This document shows positions 3,812 to 51,100 of a stretch of 64,000 bases of DNA, in pieces. The stretch is from positions 96,001 through 160,000 of IMG/VR virus record IMGVR_UViG_2061766007_000586. One strand, given 5' to 3'. The DNA is from a virus (lineage: Duplodnaviria; Caudoviricetes). Under the pieces are notes generated by a model, which was not told the origin of the DNA, searched no databases, and saw only the letters and a program-made list of their open reading frames with translations. How positions within the stretch are numbered: the stretch's first letter is position 1; each line of letters opens with the position of its first letter. Position numbers and translations under genes: made by a program.

Positions 3812-6800
3812 TTAGGGAGTGACACGTCCGTTAATATCGATATCACCATAATGATACTGTGTAACGACAACCGAATTCGTCTCGGAATCTTCATGTACTA
3901 CGCCAAGAACTTTGTAATATCCTTGAGCTGAAGTTGCCTGAGCAGGAAGAACATTGTGTAAGCAATATCCGCTTGAGAAAGCAGACGATTCGTAATAAAG
4001 ATAGAAACAAATACTTCTGTCGTTTTCTGTAATAGTACCAGAAACATCAGAACCAGCAATAGTCATCATAGACGTACCTAATTGGACACGTCCCCCAATA
4101 CAAGATAGTGTAGAAGAATCTACATCATAGAACACTTTGAATGGTCCATTATAAGTTAATTCTACACTATAAGATGTCATATTCGACTCCATTGTCGAAA
4201 TGACAATATCACTGACTTGAGATTCAGTGATGCCACCTCCACCAATAGATGCACTACTAATCTGTGCACTTACATAGGAAGTGAGAGATGTTGTAATATC
4301 AGTCGATTGAGTATCAAGTTCTGAAGTCACATAAGCTTCATATTCACTTGTGATCGTTGCAGAAAGTGTACTATTCTCAGATGTTACAATATCACTAATT
4401 TGTGTTAACGTTACAATACCAGCTGTATCACTTGTTGCTGCAGGAACTGTTACATTACCAGCACTCGTCGCATAAGCCACAGATGTAGTAGTATAATCAA
4501 TAGCAGCAATAGCTGACATATATTCAGATGTAATAGTAGTTGAAACACTAGCTACTACTGATGTTGCTTGATCAGATGCTATCGAAGTAACAGAGTCAAG
4601 AGTTACACCACCAAGTGTGTCAGATGTAGCAGCTGGAAGTGTGTAATTCGACAGTCCATCCACTGCACTTGCAATCTTGGAAGTATAATCATCAACCAAC
4701 GCTGAAGACAGTGTATTATCTGCATCAGTATAAGCACTAGTAATTTCAATTGATAACGATGTATCGAGAACACCAGTACTTGTAACAGCATCGGCAGCAT
4801 AACTACTAGCAATATTGCTAATCGTAGTTAATGTTACACCACCAAGACTGTCTGCTGTAGCAGAAGGTAACACATAAGTTTCAGGAACTTCAAATGCATC
4901 CAAAGCACTAGAAATAGCACTCGTATAAGCTTCAGTAATTGTAGCAGTAGCTGTACTAACTTGAGCAGAAGCTTGTGCAGAAGCAATCGTACTTACAGTC
5001 GTTAATGTAATACCACCTAAACTATCAGCTGTAGCTGTCGGAAGTGTATACGCTGCATCAGCAATTGCAGAAGTGTATGCTTCTGTAATCGTTGCTGATA
5101 AAGTATTATCAGCAGATATAGCAATTTCACTTACTCTAACTTCAGTGACTCCAGGATCTGGCAGGTTATTAATAACAGAAGTAATCTTAGATGTATAATC
5201 TTCAACTATCGCAGCAGACAATACTGTATCAGCAGAAGCATAGCTTGTTGTCAGAAGTACAGACAAGGCATTATCTAACGATGTAGCACTTGTTACTGCC
5301 ACTGTTATTGTTGAAGTATCACCTGCTGTGATTGCTTCATTCAAATTAGACGATAATGCAACAATTGATGTATTCATCAATCCAGATAAAGCTGTATCTG
5401 CAGATACATAAGCCTCAGCAACTGTAGCAGCCGAAGCAGATGCATAAGCATTTGCAATTGTACTAATCTGAGTTAATGTTACTCCACCTAAGCTATCCGA
5501 TGTTGCAGCAACAAGTGTGTAATCATGGGAAGTTGCCATCTCATCTGCAATTGTAGAAATTGTAGTAAGAGTGACTCCACCAAGAGTATCACTTGTAGCG
5601 GCAGGTAAGGTATAAGACGCATCACTAATAGCTGATGTATAAGCTTCAGTGATTGTTGCACTTAAAGTAGTATCTGCACTCGTAGCGATAGAACTTGCGA
5701 TCGAACTTATGGTCGTAAGTGAAACACCGCCGAGAGAATCAGAAGTAGCAGCAGGTAAAGTATAGACAGGTATTGCATTAATTTCAGAAGTAACATAATT
5801 CACCATCGATGTATGTTCTGCACTAATTGCATCTGTATATTCAGACGTAATTGAGACAGACATAGCATTTGCTTTACTTGTAGCAATCGTACTGATGGTT
5901 TCTAATGTAACACCACCCAGCGTACTTGTGGTAGCTTCAGGTAATGTATAATTAGATAATCCACTAACAGCATCTGCAATCTTAGAAGTATAATCTTCCA
6001 CTAATGTACTGGACAGTGCGGCGTCGAGAGACGTTGCACTTGCTACAGCAACGGTGATAGCAGATGTCTTCTGTGTAGCGATTTCAACAGTAAGATCAGA
6101 AGTAAGAGTTGTATCAAGACCATCAGCAATACTACTTGCAATTGTACTAACAGTTGTGAGTGTAATACCGCCTAAACTGTCTACAGTTGCAGTAGGTAAT
6201 GTATAAGGTTCAATACTATTAATTGCTTCATCAATGGCTGAAGTATATTCATTCGTAATCGTTGTAGACATTGCATTAACAAGAGATGTAGCGCGATCAG
6301 TTGCGATACTACTTACAGTTGTCAATGTGATTCCACCTAACGAATCATTTGTAGCAGCAGGAAGTGTATAAGTAGGAATATTGTTAATTGCACTTGTGTA
6401 AGCAAGTGTGATATTACTAGAAAGTACAGCATCCGCTGATGTAAACTTATTCGTAAGTGAAGTGTCTAATTCAGTATCTGCATCCACATAGGCGCTTGTA
6501 ACAGATTCCTCAACTGCTCCAGCATAACCAGATGCAATCGTACTAACTGTAGTAAGAGTTATACCACCAATTGTATCAGCAGTAGCTGAAGGAAGTGTAT
6601 AACTCGGAATTGCTGCAATAGCACTCGTGTATTCTTCTGTAATAGTTGCAGATAATGTATCATCCGCATCTTCATACGCACTAGTGAGCACTTCAGATAA
6701 AGTATCGTCAAGAACTCCAGCACTCGTTACTGCATCAATTACTGCAGATGTTTTAGCAGTTTCAATAGCAGTATTCAGAGTAGAAGAGGCATTTGTAATA

Positions 6801-9800: not shown

Positions 9801-12800
9801 GCAATACTTGCAGAAACTTCAGCTAATTCTGCTGCCAGAGATGTCATCGACTCGCGATCAATCGTAAACTCAGATGTATAATCTTCTGTAATTTCTTCTC
9901 TAACCACAGCAATATTAGAAGTACTAAGATCATTAGCAACACTACTGACTGTTGTAAGTGTAATTCCACCAAGCGTAGATGCTGTAGCAGTCGGAAGCAC
10001 ATATGCAGATGTGCTAATAGCAGCTAAGTACTCAGATGTAATATTACTTGAAGTTGTATTCAGTGTAGTCGTATCAACATACGAAGTTGTAAGACTTGTA
10101 AGAAGCTTATCATATTTTTCTGTATAGTCAGATGTTAAGAGATCTGACATATCGTTCAGCTGAGATGTGAAATCTTCAGGAAGTTGTGAACTAATAGTAT
10201 CGATTAATTCACTCAGCTCGCTATCAGCTGACACATAAGCGTTCGTGATAGATGTAGTTGCATCTGTGATAGCAGATGTACGTGCCACTGCTTCTTCCGC
10301 GATTGCAGAAGTATATCCATCTACTAATGTAGTAGACATAGTTGTAGTAGCTGAAGTCGCTTCTTCAGTAGCAATATCCTTAACCGTAGTTAAAGTTACA
10401 CCACCTAAAGTATCATCAGTTGCTTCAGGAAGAACATATTCATCAATACTACTAATAGCAGAAGCAATTGCACTTGTATAAGCACTTGTAAGTGTTGCAC
10501 TAAGCTCACTATCTGCTGATGTATAATCTTCTACTAAAGCTGCACTTAAAGTTGTATCAGCTGCAATATAACTGGTAGTAAGGTTAGCTGATAACAGATT
10601 ATCAGCAGAAACAAATGCACCAGCAAGTACAGAAGAAATCGTATTAACTGAAGTTGTGAAATCAGATGTTAACTCACCATCAGCTGCGATATAAGCACTT
10701 GTTAAACCAGTACTTAATGTAGTTGTATAGCTCTGAGCTATTGTACTAACAGTATTCAGAGTGATACCACCGAGTGTATCTGAAGTAGCTTCAGGTAATG
10801 TGTATTCTGGAATAGCATCAACTGCTGCATTAATAGCAGATGTATATTCATCTGTAATTGTAGCAGATGCTGCATTCAGTGCGGATGTAAATGTTTCATC
10901 TTCAACTGTAATTGCTGAAGTGAATTGATCAATTAAAGCTGAAGAAAGTGTATTAATAGAAGATGTACGAGCTGTAGTTTCAGCAGTAATCTGAGAAGTA
11001 ACTTCATCAGACAGATCAGAAATTGCTGAAGTTCTAGCTGCAGTTTCTACAGAAATTGCATCTGTGTAAGCTGATGTAACAGTTTCAACAGAAGCATCTA
11101 CAATAGAAGTTGCTATCGTACTAATTGTCGTAAGTGTTACTCCACCGAGACTATCTACGGTTGCTGCAGGAAGTACATAAGTTGCATCTTCAATAGCAGA
11201 AGTAAACTGATCAACTAAAGAAGCAGACAGAGCAGTATCAGCAGCAATATAAGCAGATGTAACTGCAACGATCTTAGAAGTATAATCTTCAACAAGACCA
11301 GCAGATACTGTATTAATAGATGTAGTAAACGTACTGACTAATTCTTCATCAGCAAGTGTATATGCACTTGTGATTACATCATCGAGAGTAGCTGTGAAAC
11401 CTTGAGCAATACTACTAACAGTAGAAAGTGTAATTCCACCAATTGTAGAGGTCGTTGCTTCTGGTAAAACATACTCAGGAATATCAGCAATAGCACTTGT
11501 ATATGCTTCTGTGATAGAAGCAGAAAGTGTATTATCAGCAGAAGTATATGCTGCAGTAATAGAAGTTTCTAATTCTGTATCAGCAGCAGTATATCCTGAA
11601 ACAAGCGTTTCACTAAGTGTAGTATCAGCAGTTGTGTAGCTTGTTGTGATTAATGTAGTACTCGAACTAATGACTTCAGCAATAGCTGACACAGCTTCAT
11701 CTATAATAGCAGAACTTGTGCTATCAACAAGATTTGTATAAGAAGTTGTAATATCAGCAGAAAGTGTTTCATCCGCAGTAGTATACGCAGATGTCACTGC
11801 TTCTTCAGTTGTAGTAGCATATGTACTAGCAATATTACTAATGGTGGTTAAAGTAACGCCACCCATCTTATCACTAGTAGCAGGTTCAAGTACATATTCT
11901 TCAATACTGTTAAATGCTGAATCAATAGCAGAAGTATAAGCACTCGTAATACTGAGTGTTAAAGCTTCATCAGCAGCTGTATATGCACTCGTAAGAGCAA
12001 TACTCAAATTCGTGTCGGCTGTTGTATAAGCAGATGTAACACTTGTAACAGTTTCTTCTTTTGTAGTAGCAATAGCACTTGTGTATGCTGTCGTTACAGA
12101 AGTAACTTGTTCAGTAATAGCATCAGTATAAGCAGATGTAATAGAAGCAGTAGCTTCTGTATCTAAGTTAGTTGCAATAGCTGTAGCAATTGAGCTAACA
12201 GAAGCTGCATCTGTTTTAGCATTCCAAGCTGCTCTTTCTTCTGAAGTAATATGAACAACTTCATCACTTGTGTGACTATCAGTATAAGCATGAGCCATAC
12301 CGAGAACAGCACTTACATCAATATCGTGATCAATGATAGCTTCACTTACAGCAGCAGAAGCATAAGCAACAGCAGAATCATAAATATTAGAAATATCAGT
12401 GATATGCTGACTAACAGCTTCTTCTACTTTACTATCAATGTAAGTACTTACAGTAGAATAAACTTCAGATGTCTGATTTGTAGCAGATGTAAACTTCTCA
12501 TTCACAGTAGAAACTAAAGTATCAGATACTGTTTCAATAGAAGCATTTACATTACTGATTGCTGAAGTAAGATTATTATCTCTTGAAGTGAATCCTTCAG
12601 TAACAGAAGTTACTAAAGTATTATAATCACTCACTGTAGCAAATCCAGAAAGGCTATTACTAACTGCTTGAATTGCAGTAGAATTAGCAGAAACACGAGT
12701 ATCCAAGCCTAACACATTATCAGCTACAATACCTACTTCAGATGTAACCTTATCATCTAATTCAGCAATGCTGGAAGCAAGAGTTTCATCAGCAGCGATA

Positions 12801-37906: not shown

Positions 37907-38194
37907 TTATCGAGGTGTATATTGACATTCTGTTGTAACTTCGAAAATATTCTTTGAACAAAGATCACAGATAGGAAATTGCTTCTTATCTGTTTTGAAA
38001 TTTGCACAACTTGTACATTTTTTGATTTGTGGAATACTGTAGATAAATTTTGCATTAGCATTAACAGCACACCAAATACCATCGATGTCATTTTTGAAAG
38101 TTTGAATTGCTCCTAACAAAAATAACTTATCCTGCTTGAGCATATTGATTTGCTGCTGAAGCTCTTTGATTTTCTTACGATTGAAAAGATCCAC
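37907..38194 (-). CDS. Small protein with coiled coil and CxxC...CxxC zinc-finger-like motif (95 aa)
   Basis: GTG start with RBS aaggagg; CTSC...CDLC; first gene after an early-type promoter at about 38228-38239. Confidence 0.75.
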   Translation of the reverse strand: MDLFNRKKIKELQQQINMLKQDKLFLLGAIQTFKNDIDGIWCAVNANAKFIYSIPQIKKCTSCANFKTDKKQFPICDLCSKNIFEVTTECQYTPR

Positions 38195-38271
38195 AATAAA
38201 CCTCCTTGCTTAAATTGGTTACATTTAAGTTATATATATTTTAACCTATTATCAAAAAAAATAAAAGAACA

Positions 38272-38301
38272 GCTCGTAGGCGTTGCCACACGCCTACGAG
38301 C
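38272..38301 (-). terminator. Intrinsic terminator ending the 600-nt RNA
   Basis: Stem gctcgtaggcg/cgcctacgagc plus long U-tract. Confidence 0.9.
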
Positions 38302-38890
38302 CATTAATTGTTCCAGGGACCCGGTCAACAAAATCCCTTATCATCCATGTTACCTACCTCACTTGCGTACGACTTATTGCCAATGCGTAACTCACTAAAC
38401 CAAAGTTATTCACTCATCAGAGTAAATAGTTTACGTCCTAGTAAGCTGGATAGATTTTGAGACCAACTGAAAGTGGCATTTTCAGTATCTCAAGGGCTGT
38501 ACCGAAGCAGCTCAGCATGTGTGAATTCTAGTATCGGATTGTCCTGGCTAGTACCAGTTAGACTAATTGGATCTCACTCTTACACGTTTCAAAAACTCGT
38601 CACATCGGATGTACATGGAGCTCAGGGAACCGCTTTTCGACTATAAGACCTTTTCATCTCTAACACGTGGTGTTGATCTAGGTTATCCACGCGTAGTACA
38701 TGATGCAGTGACCGACGTCTGCGTTCAAATACGACTATCATGCTAGCCGTCCATGGCAAAGAAATGAGGATCAAGGTGGACTCTCTCGATCCTCAACGTA
38801 ACTAGAATTCTTGTCCAGACGAGATATCTTCTTGGCGCCATCGACTACATCCTCATGGCCTATCTGAGCCTGCATCAGCACTCTAGTATA
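38272..38890 (-). ncRNA. Unknown large structured RNA of about 600 nt
   Basis: Non-coding and GC-elevated; bounded by promoter motifs (38886-38907) and a terminator; 10-bp long-range helix GAAUUCUAGU/ACUAGAAUUC; many hairpins, with UUCG and GCAA loops. Confidence 0.7.
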
Positions 38891-38926
38891 CAATGGAGAC
38901 ATATATACATAAAAAATATTTGAAAA

Positions 38927-38954
38927 TGTCTGGAGATGTTTCCATCTCCAGACA
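38927..38954 (-). terminator. Intrinsic terminator of the DUF4422 pair
   Basis: Stem tgtctggagatg/catctccagaca plus U-tract. Confidence 0.9.
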
Positions 38955-38964
38955 AGATATACGA

Positions 38965-39711
38965 TTATGAGAAGAGAAGAATATGGGGCTGGACGCAACG
39001 GAACCCTTCAAGGTTCATCATTCTTGCGAAGTAATAGCCATCAACAAATTCAAGAATCTTAGCAGCTGCGCAGATAGGATAGGTCTTACCATCACCACTA
39101 TCAGCAATGACCGGCTGAAGCTGGTCGATAGCCTGCATCACTTTAGACATGAAATCATCAAGCTTTGTAGTAGGCATGATGAACAGGTTGGATGTCGGGA
39201 GATAATCATGAGCCATGAAGTCATCATGCATCTGCTGTTCTTCAGTTGAACGATTTGGATACAGAGTATCAATCAGGTCAAGTGTAATCTGCTTCAGAGA
39301 AGGATTGAAACGAGCTTCACCCATAGCATCCACATTAGGAACACCAAAACCAGCACGAGTTGGTGAAATGATGGTATCAGGAGTTAAAACACCACCCTGG
39401 TTCCAGGTATTAGCGGTATAGAAACGACGGAAATGATTAAGACCAATAAAATCAGGATTATCAAGCTTATCCAGATTCTTCCATGCCCAATACAGCTGAG
39501 AAATTTCATAAATGTAAGGATTCAGATTGGAGATGTTATCCGCACCATCATCATCACCTTGCATATCTGCATACTGTTCAGGAATATTACCAAGAGCATG
39601 TCCACCCATCACAGGCACATAGATCTCTCCTTCAGGATCATATTCCGGAAAATAGCTACGATAGTCTCTTGCATTTTTGTCGTAAGCAACGATAATTTTT
39701 AAAGCACTCAT
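38965..39711 (-). CDS. DUF4422 family glycosyltransferase-like protein
   Basis: KIIVAY..., PVMGG, GDDDG.DNISNLNP.I.E...LYWAWKN...PDFIGLNHFRR signature. Confidence 0.85.
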   Translation of the reverse strand: MSALKIIVAYDKNARDYRSYFPEYDPEGEIYVPVMGGHALGNIPEQYADMQGDDDGADNISNLNPYIYEISQLYWAWKNLDKLDNPDFIGLNHFRRFYTANTWNQGGVLTPDTIISPTRAGFGVPNVDAMGEARFNPSLKQITLDLIDTLYPNRSTEEQQMHDDFMAHDYLPTSNLFIMPTTKLDDFMSKVMQAIDQLQPVIADSGDGKTYPICAAAKILEFVDGYYFARMMNLEGFRCVQPHILLFS

Positions 39712-39733
39712 AAAAATTTCCTCTTATTTAAAG

Positions 39734-40513
39734 TTATGCTAAATAAGTAATTGTTCCATGCTGACAATGATAATCACCAACATTGACTAATCTATCAAGA
39801 TAGAAAGCAGTGAAATATTCCATGAGTTTTTCAGCTGCACGACTCTGATAGAATCCATTATCAATACCTTCAAAAATCGGTTGTAAAACTGTAATAGCTT
39901 GTTCAACCTTAGTCATGTAATCATTGAACACTTCTTTTGGCATAATAAACGCATTATGCTTTGCAAGCAGTACCCAATTCTTCCATTTTGTGTAGAATGC
40001 TTGATCAGCTTCTGTCATATTTGGGAAAAGCTGTGCGATCAAATTTTCACCTTCATCTTTAAGAGAAGGAGTGCATGTTTTCTTTAGATATAATCCGTTC
40101 AAGCCATATCCTGTTGCATTGCACATTACAACATAGTTCGGTAAAAGACCAATTTCTGTTGGCATATGTGTTTCTGGATCTTCTGCACCGAGCCAAGAAG
40201 GTGGCGCAAGAATACGGCGATAGTGACAAAGTCCGATATAATCTGGATTACCGATCTTATCTTGATTTTTCCATGCCCAGTAAGCATGAGTTAATTCACA
40301 CAGATAACGATTTAAGTTAGAGATATTTTCTCCATCATCATCGCCCTGCATATCTGCTAATTCGTCAGGAATTTCCCCTAACACGTGGCCACCCATAACC
40401 GGCACATAAACATCACCTGGTTGATATTTTTGGCCTTCTTCAAAGGCGGTTAATCTACCACGATAGTCTTCGGAAGACTTATCATAAGCAACTATAATTT
40501 TTAAATTCTTCAT
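39734..40513 (-). CDS. DUF4422 family glycosyltransferase-like protein (tandem paralog)
   Basis: GDDDGENISNLNRYLCELTHAYWAWKN...PDYIGLCHYRR, NAFIMPKEVFNDY and R...L.E motifs. Confidence 0.88.
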   Translation of the reverse strand: MKNLKIIVAYDKSSEDYRGRLTAFEEGQKYQPGDVYVPVMGGHVLGEIPDELADMQGDDDGENISNLNRYLCELTHAYWAWKNQDKIGNPDYIGLCHYRRILAPPSWLGAEDPETHMPTEIGLLPNYVVMCNATGYGLNGLYLKKTCTPSLKDEGENLIAQLFPNMTEADQAFYTKWKNWVLLAKHNAFIMPKEVFNDYMTKVEQAITVLQPIFEGIDNGFYQSRAAEKLMEYFTAFYLDRLVNVGDYHCQHGTITYLA

Positions 40514-50951: not shown

Positions 50952-51020
50952 CAAACGACGACGGGTTTGTGACTGACATGGTGATTTCTCTCCATTTGTT
51001 AGTTCCTTATTGAGGTTCTG

Positions 51021-51053
51021 AAGGACTACGGGGTAAACCCGTAGTCCTGTTTT
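51021..51053 (+). terminator. Intrinsic terminator; same stem as 45522-45554
   Basis: aaggactacggg-gtaaa-cccgtagtcct-gtttt. Confidence 0.9.
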
Positions 51054-51100
51054 ATTTTTATGTTTATGCTTAATTTTATAACGAGATAAGAGAGGTAAAA

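Follow-up and report, generated by a model that had tools for sequence, protein, structure and literature searches.

Background

Few large structured RNAs with genes of their own are known from bacteria and phages. Those known, ROOL, GOLLD and OLE, have proved to build RNA-only assemblies without precedent, and what they do has yet to be established. ROOL averages 581 nt and came to light in metagenomes of the cow rumen (Weinberg et al. 2017, PMC5737381); its structure has been studied by cryo-EM (10.1101/2024.12.08.627333). As a kind of object, an orphan large structured phage RNA is therefore already known.

Here, I describe a putative RNA gene from a rumen phage, which matches none of these models and which recurs, in strongly diverged forms, at the same place in the genomes of related phages. 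The window analysed is a stretch of 64,000 nt, bases 96001-160000 of a 318,604-bp IMG/VR record rated complete (IMGVR_UViG_2061766007_000586). RNA-polymerase beta-like subunits, DNA polymerase, topoisomerase and giant virion proteins are encoded by this 318.6-kb genome, which thus belongs to a lytic-type jumbo phage equipped with multisubunit RNA polymerases of its own. Metagenomes of cattle and sheep rumen are the source of the related contigs.

Results

Layout of the locus

Nearly all genes near the locus lie on the minus strand. An ORF-free gap (38195-38964) is flanked by a DUF4422 glycosyltransferase gene and by a gene for a protein of 95 aa, which is zinc-ribbon-like; within the gap, the RNA unit occupies window positions 38255-38907 on the minus strand and contains no ORF. 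The GC content is 45.1% in a 534-nt core (38272-38805), vs 36.2% in the genome. The features are listed below in the direction of transcription; the window's version of the locus and its close relatives are called A-type.

38965-39711, minus: DUF4422 glycosyltransferase gene, on the upstream side of the ORF-free gap
38928-38953, minus: terminator-like hairpin of 10 bp with a T-rich tail, which closes the upstream glycosyltransferase operon (from the sequence; identical in all A-type relatives)
38898-38926, minus: predicted promoter, a T-rich/TTTTCAAA upstream element and a 10-nt AT-rich core at 38907-38898 (from genome-wide recurrence of the motif)
38815-38878, minus: hypervariable 5' leader, of unrelated sequence in each A-type version
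38642-38797, minus: predicted conserved 5' domain, with H3 (38795-38765), a U-rich linker, CCAUGG (38756-38751), H4 (38750-38731), H4b, H4c with a 16-nt loop (38694-38663) and a purine-rich tail (from model R2)
38523-38810, minus: predicted long-range helix P0, 38810-38801 with 38532-38523, a perfect 10 bp in the window
38306-38641, minus: 3' body, with a long imperfect hairpin, hairpins at 38496-38511 (UUCG loop), 38457-38493 and 38407-38428, a GNRA-capped hairpin and a last hairpin at 38315-38338 (from the consensus fold of three A-type sequences)
38253-38305, minus: strong intrinsic terminator of the RNA, stem 38305-38268 and U-run 38269-38253 (from the sequence)
38195-38252, minus: control region of the 95-aa gene, outside the RNA, with a predicted early promoter of its own (core 38238-38229) and a ribosome-binding site (from the motif copy)
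37907-38194, minus: 95-aa gene, with a strong ribosome-binding site, on the downstream side of the gap

Comparison with known RNA families

A preliminary description, made from the letters alone, had proposed either a divergent member of the ROOL/GOLLD class or a new large non-coding RNA, and only the latter has stood. The cmscan comparison that it called for, run with lax filters on 951 nt (window 38100-39050) against 4227 Rfam 15 models, returned four chance-level hits, all on the terminator or the flanks, and no match to OLE, HEARO, raiA, group I/II introns, RNase P, ribozymes or rRNA models. For ROOL (RF03087; gathering score 99.1 bits), neither the region nor the complete genome of 318.6 kb contained a match at E<=10; the whole-genome search was also blank in control genomes and says little on sensitivity, the lax scan of 951 nt being the better test. 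Likewise, GOLLD (RF02032; gathering score 150 bits) had no match in the region at E<=10, and its single match in the genome (11.9 bits) lies elsewhere and resembles the chance matches found in control genomes. No Rfam family, tRNAs included, reaches its gathering score anywhere in the 64-kb window. The setting typical of ROOL and GOLLD, next to tRNA genes or in a prophage, is not the one found here, in a lytic-type phage with no Rfam-detected tRNA in the 64-kb window. The RNA family is new in the sense that neither Rfam 15 nor the literature searched contains it.

Promoter, start and terminators

In jumbo phages that encode RNA polymerases, a highly conserved AT-rich element of ~10 nt, centred near -10, has been found bioinformatically before early operons and is used by the virion polymerase (Sokolova et al., PMC7598289). 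The core motif upstream of the RNA (seven alternating T/A bases, any base, then A/C/T, then C) has 50 copies in the genome, 46 of them on the minus strand; the copies usually have in front of them a T-rich element whose last bases are TCAA or TGAA-like, and stand 25-40 nt upstream of ribosome-binding sites or ~15 nt upstream of tRNA genes. A promoter of the same class was also read at window 31629. An AT-rich motif at 38907-38898, recurring genome-wide and mostly co-oriented, is what an early (virion-RNAP) transcription unit should possess, and the promoter is probably of this early, virion-polymerase class, with an RNA start expected near 38893.

At the other end, the terminator stem has 16 pairs, 8 of them G-C, and its upper stem and loop are common to A-type and B1-type loci (see below). 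About 15 nt past its U-run lies the promoter copy at 38238-38229, by which the 95-aa gene is served, so that the RNA is not needed as its leader. The unit of ~635 nt, from ~38893 to ~38258 on the minus strand, would therefore be a stand-alone transcription unit, from promoter to terminator.

Much of what had been proposed for the boundaries holds. A stand-alone non-coding unit is supported, on the minus strand, by the promoter motif and the terminator; terminators are found on both sides (intrinsic at 38305-38268, a hairpin with a T-rich tail at 38928-38953), and both of the decamers read as promoters are present, at 38907-38898 and 38895-38886. Of the two promoters claimed, however, it is the one with the genome-wide early-type motif that stands; the second, "late-like" decamer (38895-38886) has no independent support and occupies the place of a downstream T/A-rich element seen in other promoter copies. 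Expression throughout infection, which had also been suggested, is not supported; only the early-type motif can be backed.

Absence of coding capacity

The absence of any credible ORF over ~620 nt, as first described, was confirmed under three genetic codes (table 11, TAG read as Q, and table 4), the longest open frame in the gap being of at most 82 codons. In the small ORFs of both strands, all differences among three related sequences are non-synonymous, frameshifts or stops. The RNA stretch does contain plus-strand ORFs of 50-59 codons, in which the differences are all non-synonymous and one of which gains a stop in L028, an A-type relative; a 1-nt indel among A-type relatives frameshifts the minus-strand ORFs; and a frame of 34 codons running from the leader into the core is open in the window and in L005, another relative, and stopped in L028. 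The plus-strand ORFs run antisense to the promoter-terminator unit.

A decayed protein gene had been named among the findings that would speak against an RNA. With the GLF, glycosyltransferase and 170-aa proteins of the relatives as queries (see below), tblastn detected no remnant in the gap or elsewhere in the genome. Modules of tRNA or tmRNA type were not found, and ARAGORN gave no tRNA over 38150-39000. The stretch is without coding capacity and is neither a live nor a dead protein gene.

Close relatives: a conserved core in a mosaic region

Database look-ups with two neighbouring proteins yielded two further A-type versions, one being L005 (JGI contig Ga0247610_10043333) and the other common to L027, L028 and L029 (ENA), of which L028 is from a contig of 318,677 bp. 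Across the three versions the 534-nt core is 95.5-98.9% identical, and the flanking genes 86-98%; pair by pair, the identities are as follows.

Window and L005: core 98.9%; flanking genes 85.9%, 88.4% and 91.7%
L005 and L028: core 95.7%; flanking genes 86-90%
Window and L028: core 95.5%; third codon positions of the flanking genes 86-94%

Whichever pair is compared, the core is better preserved than any other piece, and these alignments show it changing more slowly than the silent sites of the neighbouring genes, even if part of its high identity could reflect recent exchange within a mosaic region.

Upstream of the core, the leader is of a different length in each version (~64-73 nt in the window, ~103 in L028, 148 in L005), while the sequences on both sides of it are 96-99% identical; two public assemblies break exactly at this point. 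Downstream, the 95-aa gene occurs as two alleles with 42-47% protein identity, which do not follow the RNA type. Swapped leaders and swapped alleles of the next gene mark the region as a recombination mosaic.

Other searches returned no relatives: the stretch had no match among GenBank phages (BLAST, distant mode), the neighbour proteins and two A-type 20-24-mers had none in IMG/VR, nor did a B-type 20-mer there, and no paralogue was found in the same genome by blastn or with a B-type nhmmer profile.

Folding energy and substitution pattern

For the whole stretch, z is -4.85 when the minus strand is folded and -4.32 for the plus strand; the minus-strand value is due in large part to the terminator. 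With both leader and terminator removed, the body of 500 nt scores z = -2.29 on the minus strand (3 of 100 shuffles being as good) and -0.67 on the plus strand. In a background test with mononucleotide shuffles, random genome windows scored low too, and like-for-like coding controls were therefore used: four 500-nt coding segments of the same phage, in sense, gave z = -2.76, -0.37, -3.43 and +0.89. Folding energy favours the minus strand and does not separate the region from ordinary genes; since the body folds no better than the coding controls, thermodynamics alone is no proof of an ornate RNA. Support for the RNA comes instead from conservation, substitution pattern and homologues.

As to the substitutions, those of L005 and L028 were placed on the single-sequence MFE fold of the window: 11 are at unpaired sites, 9 leave a pair intact and 5 disrupt one, vs 6.5 kept and 9.2 broken when the same changes are placed at random (P = 0.03 for so few breaks), and the plus strand gives no signal in the same test (P = 0.32). 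The consensus fold of the three A-type sequences contains 12 one-sided pair-keeping changes (among G-C, G-U and A-U), vs 1-5 in slid controls, and such changes preserve pairs in seven helices of the 3' body; the number of double compensatory changes among the three sequences is zero. The long-range helix P0 is of 9 bp in L028, where one C-to-U change leads to a G-U pair, and of ~7 bp in L005. The substitutions thus appear to lend modest, strand-specific support to many stems, short of proving an ornate fold. Several junctions and one candidate pseudoknot are predicted for the A-type.

Set against the preliminary description, the preference for the minus strand is borne out by the body (-2.29 vs -0.67); all the stems that it listed appear in the MFE and consensus folds; and its 10-bp helix (38801-38810 with 38523-38532) is indeed a perfect inverted repeat, which encloses 268 nt. 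The value for the whole stretch (z = -4.85) overstates the case, and the body, at -2.29, lies within the range of the coding controls. The term "ornate" is unproven, as the energy is not above that of coding controls and comparative evidence backs the fold only in part.

The same slot in distant phages

Five more distant loci, here called B-type, fall into B1 (L002/L034) and B2 (L003 and L007/L033). Their gene order is glycosyltransferases, GLF, an ORF-free unit of 545-760 nt, in some a 170-aa gene, and a 94-96-aa gene. The 170-aa gene, with an RNA-polymerase alpha-CTD domain, is present in L002, L003 and L034; a UDP-galactopyranose mutase (GLF) gene and a third glycosyltransferase gene are carried near the slot by B-type phages and not by A-types. 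Each B unit has its own early-type promoter and a strong terminator, and none of the B-type loci matches an Rfam family. In all, the slot order (glycosyltransferase genes with or without GLF, the RNA, with or without the 170-aa gene, the 94/95-aa gene) holds in ten loci, the units sharing slot and strand and each having its own promoter and terminator.

At the level of plain sequence similarity, BLAST finds only the downstream promoter in common between B-types and the window, 38195-38252 being the only part of the gap so matched. More sensitive comparisons go further. Searched with an nhmmer profile made from the B RNAs, the 318-kb genome yields one match, namely the last hairpin and terminator of the RNA, on the right strand (E 0.0012); that last hairpin covaries between A and B types. 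In global alignment, the A body scores above all 200 dinucleotide shuffles against B1 (z 3.3) and not significantly against B2 (z 0.6-1.7).

The 5' domain of the B-types contains 6 pairs with double changes, with 95% of cells paired, vs 0-2 in slid controls. A covariance model of this domain (R2), built from four B sequences only, aligns over its full length at the site that had been predicted by eye in the A-types (window 38642-38797, L028 2398-2554, L005 2632-2783). The matches score 6-9 bits, with E 0.9-6 in a 75-kb search, and reach significance only in searches restricted to the slot (E 0.011 in the window, 0.0047 in L028); an earlier model from two B2 sequences (R1) missed the A-type. 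A match of R1/R2 at window 51018-51100 was rejected as a homologue, being a terminator hairpin.

In a mechanical search, one set of elements turned up in A, B1 and B2, each in a matching position: H3 at domain positions 3-33, CCAUGG at 41-43, a 7-bp H4 at 46-68, and H4c at ~96-136 with a loop of 16-21 nt. The stem sequences of H3, H4 and H4c are entirely different between the three types; the H4c loops of A and B1 both contain the word AGAUCA, and the purine-rich tail is able to pair with the U-rich linker. In addition, the H4 loop is complementary to the strand just before H4c (positions 89-100) over 6, 7 and 6 bp in three different sequences, with shuffle P = 0.08, 0.05 and 0.22 by type and ~0.03 combined, which makes the two a candidate pseudoknot. 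A hand-drawn helix P2, pairing CCAUGG with a downstream AUGG, was dropped as a family feature, for it is not kept in the A-type and is imperfect in B1.

From these comparisons it is concluded that A, B1 and B2 are, in all likelihood, diverged alleles of one RNA gene family, whose plan would comprise a conserved domain of 150 nt, a variable 5' extension and a largely re-made 3' body. The extensions are leaders in A and B1, and two extra hairpins in B. Some seven distinct sequences, all from a single clade of rumen jumbo phages, make up the family as known so far. Outside it, a B-type 20-mer had 1 match in GTDB genomes, in an Anaerolineales MAG and confined to a hairpin, which was rejected because ~1 chance match is expected.

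A run of 13 nt in the B2 allele is identical to the universally conserved segment of 16S that adjoins the 790 loop. Mimicry of rRNA by the A-type was rejected, as only words of 8-11 nt, at chance level, are in common with the E. coli rrnB operon.

Discussion

A probable non-coding RNA gene and its alternatives

The stretch is very probably a real non-coding RNA gene. The most serious competing explanation is that of a functionless spacer, perhaps left by gene loss or gain at a recombination hot spot, conserved by recent exchange and with fortuitous hairpins. The mosaic nature of the region, where leader and 95-aa gene are swapped between close relatives, fits this explanation, as do the lack in A-types of the GLF gene and third glycosyltransferase gene found upstream in B-types, a folding energy no better than that of coding controls, and the zero count of double compensatory changes within the A-type. 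A spacer, however, would hardly be expected to possess a dedicated terminator and a dedicated promoter of the genome's main class, nor a GC content 9 points above the genome; moreover, the core is more conserved than silent sites or flanks in three of three pairwise comparisons, the pair-preserving substitutions are strand-specific, protein remnants are not detectable, and the B-type RNAs have the same 150-nt architecture with different stem sequences. A mere spacer is therefore regarded as improbable. That the stretch encodes one or more small proteins is hardly credible: plus-strand ORFs of 50-59 codons and the 34-codon leader-core frame of the window and L005 could be so read, yet the former run antisense to the transcription unit, differ by non-synonymous changes throughout and gain a stop in L028, where the latter is stopped as well, and the minus-strand ORFs are frameshifted by a 1-nt indel.

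Granted an RNA, it might act in cis, as a leader or insulator controlling read-through into the downstream early operon, or as an RNA of put type; put-type antitermination RNAs modify the transcribing polymerase. Its position directly upstream of an early operon, on the same strand, and a terminator ~15 nt from the next promoter would suit such a role. Against it, the gene downstream is equipped with a ribosome-binding site and a complete early promoter of its own, which are kept even where another RNA type is present or the 170-aa gene intervenes; the downstream allele varies independently of the RNA type; and 635 nt far exceeds known leaders of such kind, so that a cis-acting function is quite improbable. 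A very divergent ROOL or GOLLD is suggested by a size near the ROOL mean of 581 nt, a rumen origin like that of the first ROOL (PMC5737381) and the encoding by a phage; neither model matches at E<=10, be it in the lax 951-nt scan or in the genome, the B-type relatives are unmatched too, and the 64-kb window has no Rfam tRNA at gathering score, all of which renders membership in either family very unlikely.

A possible role in early infection

The explanation favoured here is that of a stand-alone non-coding RNA gene of ~635 nt, under an early promoter, belonging to a family tied to one genomic slot, whose product acts in trans as a decoy or scaffold; taken as a whole, this statement is considered reasonably probable. 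If the promoter is of the early virion-polymerase class, the injected virion polymerase would transcribe the RNA in the cytoplasm of the host, within the first few minutes after infection begins. Once folded, the RNA would act in trans and most likely bind and retain a protein of the host or the phage, in the course of host takeover or counter-defence; the conserved 150-nt domain might be the docking part, and the variable parts peripheral. The locus may be regarded as an exchangeable accessory cassette, in which RNA type, leader and 95-aa gene allele are reshuffled independently.

The trans-acting role rests on the early promoter and on the behaviour of the locus: binding as a decoy or scaffold is proposed because the unit is independent of the surrounding genes, and because the locus behaves as an accessory cassette with rapid allele turnover. 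Considered on its own, the decoy or scaffold function is a tentative suggestion, more doubtful than the existence of the RNA gene. A more specific version, in which the slot holds an exchangeable early RNA effector, made of a docking domain with leader and body modules shaped by an arms race, and sequesters or imitates a component of host translation or defence, is rather unlikely. A self-assembling RNA-only particle of ROOL type is possible. As a separate observation, the zinc-ribbon-like neighbour protein does not co-vary with the RNA type.

Significance and relation to ROOL and GOLLD

The locus adds a new RNA family, not in Rfam, with a fixed genomic slot and an apparent early promoter. It comes with natural domain swaps, in which one core carries three different leaders and one 5' domain three body types; these variants point to the essential part, and are ready-made constructs for probing, cryo-EM and pull-downs. 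The findings suggest that RNAP-encoding rumen jumbo phages may deploy a set of early RNAs in host takeover. The weight of the locus is limited by its narrow distribution, with about seven distinct sequences in one phage clade, and by a structure that is supported in part.

To sum up, the RNA resembles GOLLD in being a large stand-alone phage-associated RNA gene, and differs from it in that GOLLD is larger and typically adjoins tRNA genes, its model having no match here. As to ROOL, both are large non-coding RNAs of bacteria or phages, of similar size and of rumen origin, often phage-borne, and without an adjacent partner gene. In contrast with ROOL, support is here limited to the 150-nt domain and scattered hairpins, and the RNA is so far that of one clade of rumen jumbo phages, where it keeps to a fixed slot with no Rfam-detected tRNA in 64 kb.

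Gene neighbourhood of the RNA slot

Directly 3' of the A-type RNA (the ORF-free RNA of the window, also carried by the rumen contigs L005 and L028) lies a gene of 94-96 aa, whose product has a helix at its N-terminus and a Cys-rich region at its C-terminus.

Window 37907-38194, minus strand: 94-96-aa gene
L005 3236-3520; L028 3001-3285; L003 11798-12088: the same gene in relatives

The gene exists as two alleles with a mutual identity of just 42-47%. The window allele has 93% identity with the one in L003, a phage with a B2-type RNA, one of the two B types (B1 and B2) that occupy the same slot in more distant phages; L005 and L028 carry the A-type RNA, as the window does, yet have the other allele. 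Judged by these sequences, RNA types and alleles are therefore reshuffled independently of each other.

In some relatives, a further gene, preceded by an early-type promoter of its own, separates the B-type RNA from the 94-aa gene. It encodes a protein carrying an RNA-polymerase alpha C-terminal domain (PF03118), and is missing from the window's phage genome and from L007.

L002 4226-4738; L003 11269-11781; L034 2472-2984: 170-aa protein gene

Upstream of the slot, the following region was compared.

Window 38965-40513, against L002, L003, L007 and L034: genes upstream of the RNA slot

DUF4422 glycosyltransferase genes number two in A-type and three in B-type phages, the latter also having a UDP-galactopyranose mutase (GLF) gene immediately upstream of the slot; these differences in gene content suggest that sister phages differ in glycan chemistry.

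Across the whole genome, 46 of the 50 copies of the early-type promoter motif lie on one strand. The motif stands before tRNA genes and other ORF-free units in addition to protein genes, a distribution suggestive of a large programme of early RNAs in this phage.

Resemblances to known RNAs

The best window match of both covariance models built from B-type RNAs only (17-20 bits) comprises a hairpin with its flanks; it was rejected as a homologue of the RNA and appears to be a terminator.

Window 51018-51100, plus strand: best match of the B-type models

Words from the universally conserved 16S rRNA segment that surrounds the 790 loop recur unchanged in B-type RNAs, in permuted order.

L003 about 11123-11135 and 11063-11078; L002 about 4007-4014: 16S-identical words

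In B2, one run of 13 nt, GGAGCAAACAGGA, matches exactly (blastn-short E 0.03), and an 8-mer and then a 6-mer are also present; B1 has a single 8-mer. Since the A-type RNA does not have these words and rRNA models gave no match, the identity may be due to chance.

Two hairpins recall other known RNAs.

Window 38407-38428, minus strand: hairpin with hammerhead-core word
L003 10775-10804, with equivalents in L002, L007 and L034: tip of H3, the first hairpin of the shared 5' domain, in B-type RNAs

The loop region of the former reads CUGAUGAG, the conserved core word of hammerhead ribozymes; helix II and any Rfam hammerhead match are absent, and the base preceding the word is changed in L028. The likeness is probably a coincidence. 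The H3 tip, at which ARAGORN called no tRNA and a 20-mer of which occurs once in an Anaerolineales MAG (the match being confined to the hairpin), has a 7-nt loop on a 4-bp stem and resembles the T-arm or T-loop module of a tRNA.
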